Below are positions 42,866 to 50,069 of a DNA stretch of 53,458 nucleotides, one piece after another. Made by a program: the position numbers and the translations under genes. Source of the stretch: Ruminococcus sp. UBA1780 (lineage in GTDB: Bacteria; Bacillota; Clostridia; Oscillospirales; Ruminococcaceae); the NCBI GenBank assembly GCA_002315235.1, contig DCGK01000095.1:1-53458 (forward strand), written 5' to 3'. Position 1 is the first letter of the stretch; every line of letters begins with the position of its first letter. The notes under the pieces were generated by a model. It was not told the DNA's origin. It saw only the letters and a program-made list of their open reading frames with translations, and did no database searches.

Positions 42866-42927
42866 ACGGTAAACGGAAAATACAGTGACCGAAAAGAAGC
42901 CTGATTATCTGTATTTCCGGAAAACGG

Positions 42928-45066
42928 TTATGGCATACGGATTTCGATAATACCTGATGGATATCCGCAGTTTTCAATGTACCATGTCCGGTTTTCACTG
43001 TCGTATCCGAAATCACCCAGTGAATTTATATTCATACCGCCTGCCGCTTCCTTCAGATGAATTTTTCCGAAGTCAAGTACGGTATCATATTTATCCGGAT
43101 TTTCTATATCCTTTACGCCGTATATTCCTTCAGTGCTGATATAGTAAAACGCATATTCTCCCGCTCCCGGTTTGCAGTACTGTGAATAGACAAACGGTGC
43201 ACCTGTGATATCAATCTGCTTCACGTCCTCTCCGCTGCTGGTCATTTCGTATGCAAGATAACGGCTTATGCCTCCGTAAATATTATCATATTTCAGAACT
43301 GCAATAACCCTGTTTTCAGACAGTGTAAAAATATTATGAATGTAGTATCCCTGTTTAAGCTTAACGGTATTTACGATATTACCTTTTCTGTCGGATATCA
43401 GTAAAGCAGGATATTCCATAAGTCCGCTTTCCCTGTTCCGGACTGCTGAGGCAAACAGAAAATATTCATCCGTTACGCAGAAGCTCTTCAGCATGCTTCC
43501 GTATGGTACTGAAAGCGGAATCTGTCCGGAAATGCCTGTCTCCGGGTCGGTTTCAGTAACCGAATAGCATTCATAGTCGTTTTCGTATGAGCAGCGTTCG
43601 GTTTCACTCAGTGAGTATATATGTCCGTTATGGATTATATCGCTGCTGCGCTGATACATATTTGCCTGAATTACTGTCTGAATTACATAATTTTCTGTTT
43701 CAGATTTAACAGCTTTCATGGCAGTATCGGTGCAGAATTTCTTTGATGTGAAATAACCGTGCTGTACGGTGAATGCTTTGTCAGAAATTTCGAACAGGCC
43801 GTCAGTAGTGGCTGCTGATGATAAATGTATTATTTCAGTTTCGTCCGTGTCAGTGTTATATGCACTGATTTCAGTGCCGTCAGATGTATAGTAGCCGTAT
43901 TTACCGCCGGTGCTGAAGCACGGTATCTGGCTGAGTTCTTTATTATACTGACCTTCGTAAATGAAATTCTCCGATTCATCAAGTGACCATATCTCAGTTG
44001 ACAGGTCGTAGTCATTGTTAAATCCTTTGCAGCTAAACAGATATATTTTACCGTTTCTTATTTTAATGCTTTTAACTGAGTGCTTGTCATCAGAAAGAGT
44101 GATGATGTTTTTTATTTTCATATTCCGGTCAAGTATTACGGCATCAGTGCACTGTGTATCCTTCAGCTGGGAATGCTTTTCTGTTGCCGCTATAAGGATA
44201 TCGCCGGAATCAAGAATGCTGATATCTTCTGCCGTTTCATATTTTAAACCGTATTCAGACAGATTAAACGTTTCTTCAGAGGAAACCGATATCCGGGTTT
44301 CCGGACTGCTGTGTCCGCTGTCGGCAGGAATTTCATACACATCACTGTCCAGCGGAATCCTGTGGAGTATCAGGTCGTACCGGCTTCCGTATGCGTTTGC
44401 ATCCGATTCCGATTCGACAAGATAAAGACAGCCATCGCTTAAAGTAAACACCGGATTTCCGTTGCTGCTTCTGAATGTATAATCTATCACAAGTTCACTG
44501 TTATATACATGCACTGACCAGTAATTGTCAAATTCTGAATACGAAAGTACTGCTGTCCGGTCACCGTACTGTACAGCCTTTTTTATATTTGTAAGAAGAT
44601 TACCTGAACTGTAACGGAATTCAGGTGCTTCAGTATCTTCCGATGCCGGAACAAGTCTGCTTTCCTCTCTGTGCTTCGTTTTTATGAAGTAATTCCTTTC
44701 TGTAACGGAACCGGTCAGACTGAAGCTTTCCGAAGGACCGGAACTGTAACGGTGTATTCTGATATCTGGTTGTTCTGAAGTCTGTTCATGTGAAACTGTT
44801 CCCGGTATATCGCTGAGAGCGCTGTTCTCATTTTCATTTTTGTTTGCGTATGATGCGGAAGCAATGGTAACTGCGATTGCTGCGGCGACTGCAGCCGGAT
44901 AGAAAATGTTCTTAAGGCTGAATCTTTTTTCCTCATAGCAGTGTACAGCTATTTTTTCAGATGACATTTCATTTTCTTTCTGCAGTATTTTCTCAAAAAG
45001 AGTGTCCCTCTGTTCGTCTGACATTTTTACAGTATCAATTGCTCTGAAATATTTTTCGTCCTGCAT
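42928..45066 (-). CDS. Putative anti-sigma factor with one TM and large extracellular beta-rich domain
   Basis: Overlaps ECF sigma 3' end; short cytoplasmic N-terminus (YFRAIDTVKMSDE), TM AAVAAAIAVTIAS, about 630 aa aromatic/beta-rich ectodomain. Confidence 0.65.
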   Translation of the reverse strand: MQDEKYFRAIDTVKMSDEQRDTLFEKILQKENEMSSEKIAVHCYEEKRFSLKNIFYPAAVAAAIAVTIASASYANKNENENSALSDIPGTVSHEQTSEQPDIRIHRYSSGPSESFSLTGSVTERNYFIKTKHREESRLVPASEDTEAPEFRYSSGNLLTNIKKAVQYGDRTAVLSYSEFDNYWSVHVYNSELVIDYTFRSSNGNPVFTLSDGCLYLVESESDANAYGSRYDLILHRIPLDSDVYEIPADSGHSSPETRISVSSEETFNLSEYGLKYETAEDISILDSGDILIAATEKHSQLKDTQCTDAVILDRNMKIKNIITLSDDKHSVKSIKIRNGKIYLFSCKGFNNDYDLSTEIWSLDESENFIYEGQYNKELSQIPCFSTGGKYGYYTSDGTEISAYNTDTDETEIIHLSSAATTDGLFEISDKAFTVQHGYFTSKKFCTDTAMKAVKSETENYVIQTVIQANMYQRSSDIIHNGHIYSLSETERCSYENDYECYSVTETDPETGISGQIPLSVPYGSMLKSFCVTDEYFLFASAVRNRESGLMEYPALLISDRKGNIVNTVKLKQGYYIHNIFTLSENRVIAVLKYDNIYGGISRYLAYEMTSSGEDVKQIDITGAPFVYSQYCKPGAGEYAFYYISTEGIYGVKDIENPDKYDTVLDFGKIHLKEAAGGMNINSLGDFGYDSENRTWYIENCGYPSGIIEIRMP

Positions 45067-45553
45067 TACTGTTCTCCTCCTGTCTGATTATTTTTTTCAG
45101 CTGTTCTCTTGCACGGTTCATCCGGGTTCTGACCGTGCTTTCATTTTTCTCAAGCATTTTCGCAATTTCCACGGTCGAATATCCTTCATAATAAAACAGA
45201 TATATGAGGTCTCTGTATTTGTCTTTCAGCTTCATTACGGCTTCCAGGATGTCTCCGTACGGATTGTCGCTCAGAAATTCACATGTCAGTTCAGGAAATC
45301 CTTCCGTTCGTTCTCTGTTCCACCAGCTCCGCAAAATATCGCGGCAGTGATTTCTTGCCGTTACAATAAACCACGCTTTTTCATGCTCACTGTTCTGAAA
45401 CTCAGGCTTCAGCATGCAGTATTTCAGAAAAACACTCTGAACGGCATCTTCAGCATCGCTTTTGTTCCTCAGATGAAGAAAAGCGATTTTGTATACGGAA
45501 TCCGAATTTCGGTAATATATCTCCCGGAATCCGTCTCTGTCCTTATCGTTCAT
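45035..45553 (-). CDS. ECF-family RNA polymerase sigma factor
   Basis: DAEDAVQSVFLK, KAWFIVTARNHCRD, LFYYEGYSTVEIAKML..STVRTRMNRAR; ATG 45553 after GGAGGT. Confidence 0.92.
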   Translation of the reverse strand: MNDKDRDGFREIYYRNSDSVYKIAFLHLRNKSDAEDAVQSVFLKYCMLKPEFQNSEHEKAWFIVTARNHCRDILRSWWNRERTEGFPELTCEFLSDNPYGDILEAVMKLKDKYRDLIYLFYYEGYSTVEIAKMLEKNESTVRTRMNRAREQLKKIIRQEENSNAGRKIFQSN

Positions 45554-45640
45554 GGAATACCTCCTTCGTATATCATACTGTAAATGCAGTATCAATTGCG
45601 TTCACTGAAATAACTGATTTTCTGCTTTTACTATAAATTA

Positions 45641-45730: not shown

Positions 45731-45817
45731 AAAAATCCTGATTTCGTGATAAATCAGCACTTCAAAAATCCCGATTTCGTGATAATTCCGGGTTGAAAAA
45801 ATCCCGATTTCGTGATA
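45731..45817 (+). repeat. Three 21-bp direct repeats at 33-bp period
   Basis: AAAAATCC(T/C)GATTTCGTGATA at 45731, 45764, 45797 with two different 12-bp spacers. Confidence 0.95.
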
Positions 45818-45821
45818 TTAT
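45793..45821 (+). promoter_or_regulatory. SigA promoter of ATPase gene overlapping repeat 3
   Basis: TTGAAA-17bp-TATTAT with extended -10 TG. Confidence 0.65.
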
Positions 45822-45860
45822 AAGATTATTGTGAAAAATACTGAGCTCCGGGAGGTATAT

Positions 45861-47213
45861 ATGAAGCGAAAAATTTATGATAAAATGCTTGAATGGAAAC
45901 AAAGATCTTCAGGAAGAACTGCGTTACTGATTGACGGCGCCAGACGTGTCGGGAAAAGCTACATCGCCAGACAGTTTGCGGAATCTGAATACAGAAGCTA
46001 TATCATGATTGATTTCGGACGTGCGCCGGAGGAAATCAAAAGCCTGTTTTACAATTACCTCAACAGTCTTGATGAACTGTTTATGTATCTTTCGAATTAT
46101 TACGGTGTAAAGCTGTACGAGCGGGAAAGCCTTGTGATTCTGGATGAGATACAGCTTTGTCCCAAAGCAAGGTCTGCAATAAAATATCTGGTTGAGGACG
46201 GAAGATTTGATTATCTTGAGACCGGATCACTGATGTCAATAAAGAAAAATGTGAGAGATATCCTTATTCCGTCAGAAGAGGAGCATATCAGGATGTATCC
46301 TCTTGACTTTGAGGAGTTTTTATGGGCACTTGACAATGACATGCTTATGCCGTTTATAAAAGCATGTTTTGAGAAGACAAAACCTCTTGGACAGGCGATG
46401 CACAGAAAATCCATGGACTACTTCAGACAGTATATGATTGTCGGTGGAATGCCGCAGGCAGTTGCTGCATACGCAGAAACAAAAAGCTTTGATGATGTTG
46501 ACAGAATTAAGCGTGCAATACTTGAACTGTACAGGGCAGATATAGTAAAGCATGCTGAAGGTTATGAGATGAAGGTTGAGCAGATATTTGATGATATTCC
46601 TTCACAGCTTCAGAAACATGAGAAAAAATTTAAATTTTCTTCTCTCAGTAAAAATGCAAGATTCAGAGAATATGAAGACGCCCTGTTCTGGCTTTCTGAT
46701 GCTATGATTACAAATCCGTGCTATAATTCAACGTCACCTGAAATAGGGCTTAAACTCAATATGGACCGACTTACTATGAAATGTTATATGGCCGACACAG
46801 GGCTTCTTATCAGTCATGCATTTGATGAAAACGGACTTGTGAGTGAAGAAATATACAGAAAACTGCTTTTTGATAAACTGGAAGTAAACAAAGGCATGAT
46901 AGTTGAAAATATAGTTGCTCAGATGTTGGCAGCAGGCGGACATAAACTGTATTTTTACTCAAATCCGTCAAAAGATGATGCTTCATCGCGTATGGAGATA
47001 GATTTTCTGATTGCAAAGAGCAAAATAAGCAACCGTCATAATGTTTCACCGATAGAAGTGAAATCAGGAAGTAACTATACCATTAAATCTCTGAAAAAGT
47101 TCATTGCCAGATACAGCGAGCAGACGCATATTCCTTATGTTATTCACACGGGGGATCTGAAGTCTGAGGACGGAATACTATACATCCCGCTGTATATGAC
47201 ACCTTGTCTGTAA
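45861..47213 (+). CDS. AAA+ ATPase with C-terminal PD-(D/E)xK-like domain (AAA_14 + DUF4143-like)
   Basis: Walker A GARRVGKS, Walker B VILDEIQ, TGS, MYPLDFEEFL, VGGMP, KCYMADTGLL, EIDFLI..PIEVKSG; ATG after GGAGGT. Confidence 0.88.
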   Translation: MKRKIYDKMLEWKQRSSGRTALLIDGARRVGKSYIARQFAESEYRSYIMIDFGRAPEEIKSLFYNYLNSLDELFMYLSNYYGVKLYERESLVILDEIQLCPKARSAIKYLVEDGRFDYLETGSLMSIKKNVRDILIPSEEEHIRMYPLDFEEFLWALDNDMLMPFIKACFEKTKPLGQAMHRKSMDYFRQYMIVGGMPQAVAAYAETKSFDDVDRIKRAILELYRADIVKHAEGYEMKVEQIFDDIPSQLQKHEKKFKFSSLSKNARFREYEDALFWLSDAMITNPCYNSTSPEIGLKLNMDRLTMKCYMADTGLLISHAFDENGLVSEEIYRKLLFDKLEVNKGMIVENIVAQMLAAGGHKLYFYSNPSKDDASSRMEIDFLIAKSKISNRHNVSPIEVKSGSNYTIKSLKKFIARYSEQTHIPYVIHTGDLKSEDGILYIPLYMTPCL

Positions 47214-47295: not shown

Positions 47296-47427
47296 GCCGA
47301 ATTTCACGGTTTAATCAGTATAGTATTTTATGATGTGAAAATTTGGTTCGATTGATGTATATGTTTTCAGAAGCTATATGTGCAAATTGCTGAAATTGAA
47401 GTTTGAGTTACATTTCTGAAATTAATG

Positions 47428-47473
47428 ATTCCGGGTTGAAAAAATTCCGGTTTCGTGATATCATAAAATTATT
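47428..47473 (+). promoter_or_regulatory. Duplicate of ATPase promoter upstream of MNT-HEPN pair
   Basis: 42/46 identity to 45785-45830; TTGAAA-17bp-TATCAT. Confidence 0.85.
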
Positions 47474-47488
47474 ACATAACGGAAGCAG

Positions 47489-47791
47489 GTGCCGGCTGAT
47501 TTGAAATACAATTTACCAGACAGAGTTTTCAGAGAAATAACAAACTTTTCACTCAGACACAATATATCAAAGGTAATACTTTTTGGTTCCAGAGCCAGGG
47601 GTACAAACTCGGAGAGAAGCGATATTGATATTGCGGTCAGTGGCGGAGATTTCGAAAGTTTTTACTGGGATATAAAAGAAAATGTTCATTCCCTGCTTAT
47701 GTTTGACATAGTTGAACTCGACAGAGGTATTTCAGAAGAACTTAAAAATGAAATTGAAAAAGACGGTGTAGTAATATATGAAAAAATATGA
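47489..47791 (+). CDS. Minimal nucleotidyltransferase (MNT) antitoxin
   Basis: VILFGSRARG..SDIDIAV (GSx10DxD) and FDIV; start could be TTG 47501. Confidence 0.9.
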   Translation: MPADLKYNLPDRVFREITNFSLRHNISKVILFGSRARGTNSERSDIDIAVSGGDFESFYWDIKENVHSLLMFDIVELDRGISEELKNEIEKDGVVIYEKI

Positions 47792-48179
47792 TAATTTTGT
47801 AAGATGTCTTGAAGTACTTTCATCTGCTGATTTTCATCTTGCAGATGAGAATGAAATTTACAGGACAGGAGTAATAGGTCAGTTTAATCTGACTTTTGAA
47901 CTTGCATGGAAAGCACTTCAGGCAGTTTTAATGCTTCATGGCGCGTCGGAAGCAGAAAGCGGTTCGCCGAGAGAAATTCTGCAAACCGGATACAAATATG
48001 GATTTATACATGATTCAGCGATGTGGCTTACTATGCTGAAAAAACGTAACACATCAGTTCATATATACAACGAAGACGAAATTGATGAAATGCTTCTTCT
48101 CATAAAAAACAGTTTTATTCCCGAGTTTATACAGCTTTCAGAAATGCTCAGTAAAAAGCTTGAAAAAATTGATTTATGA
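47778..48179 (+). CDS. HEPN protein (HI0074-like), putative RNase toxin
   Basis: GVIGQFNLTFELAWK, SPREIL, RNTSVHIY (Rx4HxY); overlaps MNT stop. Confidence 0.88.
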   Translation: MKKYDNFVRCLEVLSSADFHLADENEIYRTGVIGQFNLTFELAWKALQAVLMLHGASEAESGSPREILQTGYKYGFIHDSAMWLTMLKKRNTSVHIYNEDEIDEMLLLIKNSFIPEFIQLSEMLSKKLEKIDL

Positions 48180-48255
48180 GCATAACAACAAAGAGCTTTG
48201 AATAGCACAGGGTTTTGAAACTGTGTTTTCGCGCTTTGTGCTCTGTGGAGTAAAA

Positions 48256-48387
48256 TATAGTGAACGCAAAAAAAAATTTTACGTTCACTATAATTATTTT
48301 ATTTTTATTGCCTTGCACATCCGATGACTACGTCATCTCCGTGCATATCGGCTAATTGTAAACGCATTTATTTAATGCGTTTACAAT
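48256..48387. repeat. Cluster of palindromic elements
   Basis: TATAGTGAACG..CGTTCACTATA (48256-48292), GATGAC-TAC-GTCATC (48323-48337), ATTGTAAACGCAT..ATGCGTTTACAAT (48355-48387). Confidence 0.75.
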
Positions 48388-48455: not shown

Positions 48456-48488
48456 TGATTATGTATTTCAATATAACCAGGAGGTTTT

Positions 48489-50069
48489 ATGGGACTTTTC
48501 AGTAAAATTAAAGCAGGACTTCTGAAAACCAAGCAGCAGATGGTATCAAAAATCGCCAGACTGCTTCATTCATTTACAAAGATTGATGAAGACCTGTTTG
48601 AACAGCTTGAAGAAACTCTTATTATGAGCGATGTCGGAGTTGAAACATCACTTGAAATCTGTGACAGACTCAGAAAAAAGATAAAGGAAGAAGGAATTAC
48701 TGACCCTAAGCAGATAATGCGCCTTATTCACGAAATTGTCGCTGAAATGATGGGTGAGGATCAGGAACTTGATCTTTCGACGAAGCCGTCGGTAATAATG
48801 GTTATAGGCGTAAACGGTGCCGGCAAGACAACAACAATCGGCAAGCTGTGCCACAAGCTTAAGGGAGAGGGCAAAAAGGTTATTGTTGCAGCAGCGGATA
48901 CATTCAGAGCGGCTGCTATAGACCAGCTTCAGGTATGGACTGAAAGAGCCGGGGTTGATATAGTCAAGCATGCAGAGGGTTCGGATGCGGCGGCTGTTGT
49001 TTATGATGCGATTACAGCTGCAAAGGCAAGAAACTGCGATGTTGTTATTGTAGATACTGCCGGAAGACTTCATAACAAGAAAAATCTCATGGATGAGCTT
49101 GCGAAGATTAACCGAATTGTTTCACAGCAGGCTGAGGGCTGTTCAAGGGAAATCCTTCTTGTGCTCGATGCCACGACAGGCCAGAATGCGGTAAATCAGG
49201 CAAGACTTTTCAAGGAAGCAGCAGATATTACAGGTATCGTTCTTACAAAGCTTGACGGTACAGCCAAGGGCGGTATCGTTATTTCAATAAAAAATGAACT
49301 TGACATTCCTGTAAAGCTTATCGGACTTGGTGAAAAAATTGACGATCTTCAGGATTTCAACAGCAAGGACTTTGTAAACGCACTCTTCGGAGATGAGGTT
49401 CTTGACGGAGAAATCAATTTTGATGATGAAGTATCAGATGATAACGGCGAATCAGCAGAAGAATCAGCGGAAACCGGGGCTGAGACTGCGGAAGATATTA
49501 CGGAAACTGTGGCTGAAGAAGCAGCAGAAGAAGCTTCTGAAGCAATCACGGAACCTGCGACTGAAGCTTCAGAAGAGACCGTAGTACAGGCTGCAGAGGA
49601 GATTACTGAACCGGCAGCTGAGGAAAATGCTGAAGAAACATCGGAACCAGTGTGCGAATCAGCTGAACAGGTTACTGAAACAGCTGCAGAAATCACAGAA
49701 CCGGTTGCTGAAGCTGTCACAGAGACTTCTGAACCGGCTGAAGAGACAGCAGCAGAGATTACAGAGCCGGTAACGGAAGAAGTACCTGAAGAATCAGCTG
49801 AACCGGCTGCAGAAGAAATCACAGAACCTGCAGAAGAAACTGAAGAACCGGCATCCGGAGCTGCTGAAGATACATCAGAGCCTTCAGCTGAAACTACTGA
49901 AGCGCCTGCTGAACCGGCTGCAGAAACTGCGGAAGAAAATACAGAATCATCTGATGACTCAGCTTCAGAAGAAAATGCTGAAGAACAGAATGAAGAAACA
50001 CCGGAAGAACCTGAAGAAGGCAAAAAGAAAAAATCATTCTTCGATTTCTTCAGAAGAAAAAAGAAATAA
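48489..50069 (+). CDS. ftsY: SRP receptor FtsY with long acidic C-terminal extension
   Basis: GVNGAGKTTTIGKL, DTFRAAA, DTAGRL, TKLDGTAKGG; about 220 aa Glu/Ala/Thr/Pro tail. Confidence 0.95.
   Translation: MGLFSKIKAGLLKTKQQMVSKIARLLHSFTKIDEDLFEQLEETLIMSDVGVETSLEICDRLRKKIKEEGITDPKQIMRLIHEIVAEMMGEDQELDLSTKPSVIMVIGVNGAGKTTTIGKLCHKLKGEGKKVIVAAADTFRAAAIDQLQVWTERAGVDIVKHAEGSDAAAVVYDAITAAKARNCDVVIVDTAGRLHNKKNLMDELAKINRIVSQQAEGCSREILLVLDATTGQNAVNQARLFKEAADITGIVLTKLDGTAKGGIVISIKNELDIPVKLIGLGEKIDDLQDFNSKDFVNALFGDEVLDGEINFDDEVSDDNGESAEESAETGAETAEDITETVAEEAAEEASEAITEPATEASEETVVQAAEEITEPAAEENAEETSEPVCESAEQVTETAAEITEPVAEAVTETSEPAEETAAEITEPVTEEVPEESAEPAAEEITEPAEETEEPASGAAEDTSEPSAETTEAPAEPAAETAEENTESSDDSASEENAEEQNEETPEEPEEGKKKKSFFDFFRRKKK

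Follow-up and report, generated by a model that had tools for sequence, protein, structure and literature searches.

A phased box array upstream of a PDC-S01 ATPase-nuclease gene is a candidate cognate operator of its own product

An ATPase-nuclease gene behind three phased boxes

The window, by which we mean the whole 53,458-nucleotide stretch of Ruminococcus sp. UBA1780 DNA that was analysed, carries a PDC-S01 (AAA_14-DUF4143) gene in the interval between smc and ftsY, with three 21-bp boxes in front of it (Table 1). Each box is an exact match to AAAAATCCYGATTTCGTGATA and the boxes recur with a period of 33 bp, just as the initial annotation had described; its placing of the third box between the -35 and -10 of the gene's promoter held as well, box 3 overlapping the spacer of a predicted sigma-70-type promoter. 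With up to three mismatches allowed, the box sequence matches four times in the window where 0.01 matches are expected, a count that none of 100 shuffles reached. The predicted transcript start is at about 45828, and the likely start codon is the ATG at 45861, giving 450 aa, not the GTG at 45831, with GGAGG at 45851-45855 and homologs aligning from the methionine of that ATG. Consensus promoters of this type occur in the region at chance frequency (11 found, 10.4 expected), so the support for the promoter call is its register with the boxes, which is conserved in homologs (see below). No Rfam match was obtained at the array, and no terminator-like site was predicted between the array and the ATPase-nuclease gene.

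Table 1. Features of the ATPase-nuclease locus, in window coordinates
Feature	Position	Strand	Remarks
Box 1	45731..45751	+	Core = positions 1-18; T at base 9
Box 2	45764..45784	+	C at base 9
Predicted sigma-70-type promoter, TTGAAA-17-TG.TATTAT (-10 hexamer 45816-45821)	45793..45821	+	Consensus match; register kept in homologs
Box 3	45797..45817	+	C at base 9; occupies the -35/-10 spacer; source of the TG in the extended -10
PDC-S01 / AAA_14-DUF4143 gene, 450 aa	45861..47213	+	Predicted STAND-type NTPase, helical domain, inferred winged helix, PD-(D/E)xK nuclease
Walker A (G26-S33) to Walker B (D95-E96)	45936..46148	+	G31, K32, D95 and E96 in 242/242 homologs
Inferred winged-helix domain, residues 236-310	46566..46790	+	Model secondary structure; R267 starts the predicted recognition helix
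PD-(D/E)xK motif E349, D381, E399-x-K401	46905..47063	+	Hairpin loop carries residue 371 (K here; codon 46971-46973)
Hairpin directly after the ATPase-nuclease stop codon	47223..47251		Scored as a minus-strand terminator
Duplicate of the box-3 promoter region, 49 bp, 90% identical	47425..47473	+	Own -35/-10; decayed fourth box at 47440-47460 (2 mismatches)
MNT (47489-47791) and HI0074/HEPN-like (47778-48179) pair	47489..48179	+	Toxin-antitoxin-type; behind the fourth box

Elsewhere in the 1.9-Mb assembly no further copy of the box was found within three mismatches and a single match has four, and we discarded a genome-wide regulon or repeat on that ground. Single degenerate box cores number 317 in the host genome; about seven intergenic repeat pairs with a period of 31-35 bp were found, two of which precede the genome's two DUF4143 genes, the second gene having its own box pair at a 32-bp period. 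An 18-bp perfect pair with a 35-bp period (G000:C99:4813) lies upstream of what we take to be a glycoside-hydrolase-like ORF, divergent from a presumed AraC-like regulator.

A predicted STAND-type NTPase with a conserved nuclease motif

The ORF carries AAA_14 and DUF4143 domains in Pfam and matches the PADLOC PDC-S01 model over its full length (E 1.7e-118, residues 1-449); no NCBIfam model matched it, and no solved relative was found by sequence, the profile search returning only AAA P-loop matches. The Walker A and B motifs and the C-terminal EIDF..IEVK motif, both read from the sequence in the initial annotation, are present in the ORF and their key residues are near-invariant in 242 homologs. 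In the nuclease motif E349 is kept in 241 of the 242, D or E at 381 in all, E or D at 399 in 241 and K401 in all, and outside the Walker and nuclease motifs R3, G195, G196 and P198 are each found in 242 of 242; we take the invariant N-terminal arginine and the GGMP to be the STAND hhGRExE and GxP motifs. The near-invariance of both sets of motifs indicates that selection keeps the ATPase and the nuclease, putative as both activities are, and that the protein is not just a repressor.

An AlphaFold2 model of the 450-aa protein, built on 147 sequences, has a pLDDT of 93.4, whilst the middle domain modelled in isolation and without an alignment gave 51. Over residues 1-321 the folds that match it best are those of the archaeal STAND-type ATPases Paby2304 (2QEN; Z 16.4, rmsd 4.5, 269 residues aligned) and SSO1545 (2FNA; Z 15.5, rmsd 3.7, 261 aligned), with the NB-ARC proteins (CED-4, Z 14.6; also Apaf-1 and plant NLRs) and Avs5 (Z 11.7) more distant and the Cdc6/Orc1 structure 2QBY lower still (Z 10.9, rmsd 5.0, 197 aligned). 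In whole-model searches the matches were confined to the N-terminal 320-360 residues and left the C-terminal nuclease domain uncovered. On this high-confidence model, with 2QEN and 2FNA as its top matches, the predicted NTPase-helical-winged-helix fold is STAND-type. The secondary structure of the model at residues 236-310 runs helix-helix-hairpin, as in a winged helix, and we infer a winged helix there from that order and the whole-model matches only. The fold resembles STAND ATPases, yet the putative nuclease is C-terminal where those have an N-terminal effector, a repeat sensor domain is absent, and a cognate DNA array is inferred here. The Avs/AVAST layout, with an N-terminal effector and a C-terminal repeat sensor, is likewise not that of this protein, no repeat domain being found in Pfam or in the model and no Avs model among the PADLOC matches. 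DUF4143/COG1373 is given, in the available text of the family survey, as a PD-(D/E)XK family of unknown function (PMC3424549).

Phased arrays upstream of homologs

For comparison we used the best 80 of 563 relatives found in genome contigs, of which three were dropped from the repeat-lag test because they had too little upstream DNA. The best repeat lag fell at 32-35 bp in 73 of the 77 upstream regions against 10 of 72 downstream regions, and by profile search 77 of the 79 regions from close homologs, taken from the same best 80 of 563 relatives, have at least two boxes. The boxes of close homologs have the consensus AAAATCTyGwwwwNGTG, come in two to seven tandem units per array and are mostly spaced by 33 bp (134 spacings; 34 bp in 31, 32 bp in 4 and 66 bp in 1). 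The initial annotation had also pointed to an internal dyad, AAATC-NN-GATTT, which is present in the boxes at the locus but is not conserved: just 45 of 247 homolog boxes have it in perfect form, and just 4 of 77 homolog loci have it so in every box. We therefore rejected the dyad as the functional unit and treat the box as an asymmetric direct repeat.

Arrays extend well beyond the close homologs. Three-unit arrays scored above the maximum of eight shuffles in 140 of 149 loci, paralogs of 27-55% identity included, and an array score of at least 40 of 54 was reached by 62 of 81 near loci, 43 of 68 far loci, no shuffle and 2 of 142 downstream regions. Paralogs from the same genus at 27-55% identity (three duplicates and three partial genes were left out) carry 32-34-bp arrays of different box sequences. 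The window-type box accompanies 75 of the 80 proteins with at least 60% identity and none of the 68 below, with the proviso that the profile was trained on most of the 80 and is circular for those; among pairs of 70-80% identity the boxes are conserved in 37% of pairs and the spacers in 3%. This one box type spans Clostridia, Bacteroidales and one spirochaete record, and the paired box pattern was found in none of 400 other genomes of the order. In a clade with a changed helix region the box is one base shorter; L104 and L105 carry a shorter box variant. From these sequence comparisons the phased upstream array is a trait of the family, with a box sequence private to each subfamily.

In some paralog subfamilies the 160 bp upstream hold no clear array of direct repeats (L123, L143, L125, L117, L129, L148, L150, L155, L156 and L130), and some of them appear to have inverted repeats instead. 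At three loci a second PDC-S01 gene lies in tandem directly behind the first (L004:5461-6831, L080:5461-6798 and L073:5405-6595), and the second genes of L004 and L080 have their own boxes, related yet distinct.

Register of the boxes with the promoter

A box sits in the spacer of the best sigma-70 consensus in 64 of 77 homolog loci, and in 53 of 77 if no bonus is given for the TG, against a chance level of about 10%. Which box bears the promoter varies: in 18 of the 64 loci, this one included, no box lies downstream of it, and in 18 none lies upstream. The boxes outside the promoter keep the core and have lost the -35 and -10 hexamers, with about 18 of 33 bases conserved. The variable promoter box, and the core kept without hexamers, fit a DNA operator and argue against an RNA antitoxin or duplicated promoters.

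The first of these alternatives has a precedent in layout, as ToxIN and AbiQ have tandem repeat units directly upstream of a nuclease gene, and the two to seven tandem units of 33-34 nt directly upstream of a putative nuclease would suit a type III toxin-antitoxin-like system whose RNA antitoxin is transcribed from the repeats. We nevertheless consider this barely credible, and the least probable of the readings weighed here, since in the 18 of 64 loci with the promoter on the last box no box would be transcribed whole, the conserved bases make up little more than half of each unit, and neither a terminator-like site between array and gene nor an Rfam match was found; membership of the type III systems was rejected on these grounds.

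The second alternative is that the boxes are duplicated promoter pieces, or sites at which an unrelated regulator of the host binds, and that they have travelled with the gene. A box does supply the TG of the extended -10, and duplicates of the promoter region (the 49-bp copy here and a longer upstream copy in L019) both drive MNT-HEPN pairs. But tandem promoter duplication was rejected because the other boxes keep the core and not the hexamers, and an unrelated regulator sits badly with paralogs of one genome or genus having different boxes whilst a single box type reaches from Clostridia to a spirochaete record, and with a box that tracks the protein at the level of single residues; we regard either version as highly unlikely.

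Co-variation of protein residues and box bases

For a comparison of boxes with proteins we added further relatives of 42-76% identity, leaving out nine duplicates and eight partial genes. Across 89 representatives the partial correlation between box similarity and local protein identity, with overall identity controlled for, is highest at residues 241-280 and 361-380, r being about 0.2, a small effect among pairs that are not independent. Co-variation of the upstream repeats with the protein's middle domain had been proposed as a check in the initial annotation; the repeats and a co-variation with the protein were found, but a specificity carried by the middle domain alone is not supported, and the strongest signal lies in the nuclease domain.

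That signal is residue 371, which sits ten positions before D381 in a hairpin loop beside the nuclease site. It was analysed in 123 loci, 40 of 163 having been dropped (11 of the shorter-box clade, 14 of divergent clades and 15 without a called array). Bases 9-10 of the box are TG in 218 of 272 boxes of proteins with Arg371 against 31 of 104 boxes of proteins without it. On a tree built without the loop there are 11 independent pairs, of which 8.5 go the same way and none the opposite way (median p 0.004), and of 288 variable columns none but residue 371 falls below p 0.05 for bases 9-10. Its pairing with base 9 is likewise alone among 3456 tests in falling under 0.05 (p 0.008), a value that follows a post hoc choice and fails Bonferroni correction. 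Twenty Arg371 loci lack a TG majority, ten of them near-identical loci of one clade, and eight loci without the arginine keep TG. The window protein has Lys371, and base 9 is C in two of its three boxes. The Arg371-TpG pairing agrees with the methyl-Arg-G triad, which, in the available part of its description, predicts a preference of arginine for TpG (PMC11514455).

The other peak, at residues 241-280, includes residue 267, at the start of the putative recognition helix of the winged helix. Loci with Thr or Gly at residue 267 (L241, L252, L216 and L224) have boxes without the 3' GTG; by count, 149 loci have R or K together with GTG, seven have neither, six have R or K without GTG, and one has another residue with GTG. 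Only four independent pairs bear on this link and it is not significant.

The co-variation of residue 371 with base 9 points to direct recognition of the boxes by the protein itself. Together, the arrays of homologs, the boxes private to each subfamily and the co-variation argue for self-binding and, with the overlap of box and promoter, for autorepression; the best reading of the array is thus that of a cognate operator through which the protein would repress its own gene.

Gene-less arrays and the surroundings of the locus

In 16 of 19 loci of relatives smc lies directly before ftsY, and in the other three the interval holds other cargo, so the smc-ftsY interval is an insertion hot spot. In the window an ECF sigma factor gene and a 712-aa ORF without a Pfam match, likely an anti-sigma factor, lie between smc and the array (42928-45595, minus strand), and a second strain in run X1 appears different over 42887-45300. 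The MNT-HEPN module varies between strains independently of the ATPase gene, and its promoter, like that of the pair in L019 (L019:2745-2800; 47440 in the window), is a duplicate of the ATPase promoter or array; these are two independent cases, and either co-regulation or promoter capture would account for them. Further along, at 48254-48384, lies a 131-bp element with inverted repeats, of which genomes across the genus have up to about a dozen copies each and which is absent from one X1 allele (joint 48253 to 48385, four bases shared), a MITE-like insertion polymorphism. FtsY itself (48489-50069) has a long acidic C-terminal extension instead of the usual N-terminal one.

A gene-less allele occurs in the same species. 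Contigs of X1 and X3, from one study, and of X7, from another, retain the array and part from the window sequence at 45816, and read depth over the array exceeds that over the gene in X1 (30.6 vs. 15.7) and X3 (20.7 vs. 8). The right-hand joint of the allele is at 48480, from one X7 contig with 21 bases on that side. In a related species (genome G005) an orthologous three-box array lies between smc and ftsY, has no gene behind it and ends at about the same place; the closest relative of the ATPase-nuclease found in that genome, which is 84% complete, is 38% identical and no close homolog was seen. The three boxes of this array (L085, G005:C92:4309-4390) share a central variant unlike the window's and have a degenerate promoter, and they lie between the terminator of smc and the promoter of ftsY. 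Gene-less arrays were found at this one locus only, in none of 400 genomes of the order and in one of 16 other genomes of the genus. No joint listed for the five runs corresponded to a deletion from one 49-bp repeat to the other, by which the ATPase gene would be excised, a search in which contigs cannot show absence. Further box copies flanking the gene were found in three of 187 other loci (L019, L276 and L182); L182 (G297:C24), alone among the 187, has four boxes upstream and two inverted boxes directly after the stop codon, like the ends of an element.

These arrays suggest the main alternative role for the boxes, in a selfish one-gene module with the array as a DNA antidote or docking platform on which the nuclease stays inactive (addiction), or as the cut site for moving, homing or excision. 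Orphan arrays ending at box 3 would then be explained, as survivors or scars. The strongest base co-variation does lie in the nuclease domain, the three gene-less alleles depart at the same base with about twice the depth over the array in X1 and X3, G005 ends alike, the gene stands alone among unrelated housekeeping genes across phyla, and L182 has its inverted box pair. We hold it decidedly unlikely all the same: the orphans come from a single locus, second flanking arrays are rare, no recombinase or target duplication is seen at the locus, the right joint of the empty allele depends on that one short contig side, and ordinary gene loss with erosion could give the same picture.

Distribution and neighbourhood of the family

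The gene is solitary: no conserved partner or defence neighbour was found among 139 ORFs flanking homolog loci, and a Pfam scan of 36 neighbours gave largely housekeeping or regulatory genes, across phyla. Fifteen of the 139 have any PADLOC match (ORFs over 700 aa having been trimmed to 700 for this search), 12 of these being untested PDC candidates, a count with no baseline to set it against. A CRISPR-like repeat-spacer array was rejected, as the spacers are about 15 bp, against the unique spacers of some 30 nt in such arrays, and there is no cas or other conserved neighbour among these ORFs.

Iterons with Rep proteins, and ORB elements with Cdc6/Orc1, combine phased direct repeats, a cognate winged-helix reader and autorepression at the gene's promoter, and the initial annotation had likened the ATPase to an initiator on iterons. 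A replication initiator of this kind, acting for a plasmid, a satellite or an excised circle, would share with those systems the phased direct repeats beside the gene, at multiples of 11 bp, and an AAA+ domain with a winged helix (here predicted), and Cdc6/Orc1 is among the fold matches. Beyond a likeness in fold, and the fold is itself closer to that of the higher-scoring STAND ATPases, the initiator reading finds no support. Few relatives lie on plasmids (36 of 72,556 records, all 20 of those listed being at least 36 kb) or on viral contigs (four loci), and the present gene differs from an initiator in being a solitary chromosomal gene among housekeeping neighbours, with a conserved nuclease motif, a 32-34-bp period and no sign of a replicon; an initiator role is therefore very remote in our view.

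The family is otherwise known as a very common one. The available text of one survey puts PDC-S01 fourth in abundance among the defence and defence-candidate systems of prokaryotes (PMC12988326), and that of a study of rumen genomes gives it as the most frequent single locus, with 10,358 occurrences (PMC13356809). The initial annotation had called AAA_14/DUF4143 proteins widespread and largely uncharacterised. As far as the openly available accounts go, its role in defence was predicted on the basis of gene embedding (10.1101/2024.01.29.577857). In a published test four candidates protected against T4, T5 or T7, and a PDC-S01 coding sequence driven by a vector promoter did not belong to them (10.1101/2024.09.26.614923). 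In Thermus an AAA_14-DUF4143 gene was reportedly up 6.6-fold in the presence of a plasmid, an observation of little weight given that the gene lies near a CRISPR locus (PMC4406477).

Discussion

We consider it likely that the protein binds its own boxes, with one unit per 33 bp, the loop of the nuclease domain reading the TpG, the winged helix reading the GTG, and the promoter occluded as a result. The protein would dock head-to-tail on the three boxes on roughly one face of the helix, and would read each box in two parts. The 5' TpG (bases 9-10) would be contacted by the hairpin loop beside the nuclease site, through Arg371 in most relatives and through Lys here, where base 9 is relaxed to C in two of the three boxes; the 3' GTG would be contacted by the recognition helix of the putative winged helix, with Arg267. 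Since the boxes are phased and the host genome holds 317 single degenerate cores, binding is presumably cooperative, through the STAND module, with single degenerate cores not stably bound. A docked protein would block RNA polymerase and so keep a potentially harmful nuclease scarce. AbiE and the BrxR/CapW-controlled operons restrain a harmful effector in the same general way, by an operator over their own promoter; in the present case a single polypeptide would serve as both regulator and effector, and the sites are direct repeats instead of palindromes.

A plain operator leaves unexplained why two gene-less alleles end directly after box 3. They could be the footprint of a 'nuclease on a leash', in which the nuclease domain reads its private boxes and is inactive there, the array serving as a DNA antitoxin or trigger, and in which loss or displacement of the array, by degradation of the host DNA, entry of an invader or segregation, unleashes the enzyme; we think this unlikely. 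With autorepression through the array as the preferred reading, the function that is kept in check is its least certain part. The STAND switch and the conserved nuclease suggest an anti-invader function, and the ATPase-nuclease may be a STAND-like switch-nuclease that is released or induced on infection, a proposal that we make only tentatively and with slightly less than even confidence.

As a gene, then, this is not the undescribed system for which the initial annotation held it the best candidate, the family being known as PADLOC PDC-S01 and very common; the part not found in print is the cis array, our search of the open-access literature having returned no description of a phased upstream array for DUF4143, AAA_14, PDC-S01 or COG1373. 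The single-gene layout, with an ATPase fused to a PD-(D/E)xK domain, is that of PDC-S01 and COG1373 (PMC12988326, PMC3424549), whose published accounts, in their available text, give abundance and domains, with the upstream array, self-recognition and a mechanism absent from it.

PDC-S01 is among the commonest uncharacterised gene families of prokaryotes and has no assigned activity. A putative cognate DNA site with named pairs (residue 371 with base 9, residue 267 with the 3' GTG) offers it a first substrate for work on binding, ATPase activity and cleavage and for cryo-EM, and suggests a reason why a test of the coding sequence alone could fail. If the proposal is true, Orc1-like DNA recognition and STAND switches would be linked by a STAND-type protein whose nuclease domain reads the protein's own promoter, and the many pairs of a protein with its private box would form a natural set of orthogonal repressors.
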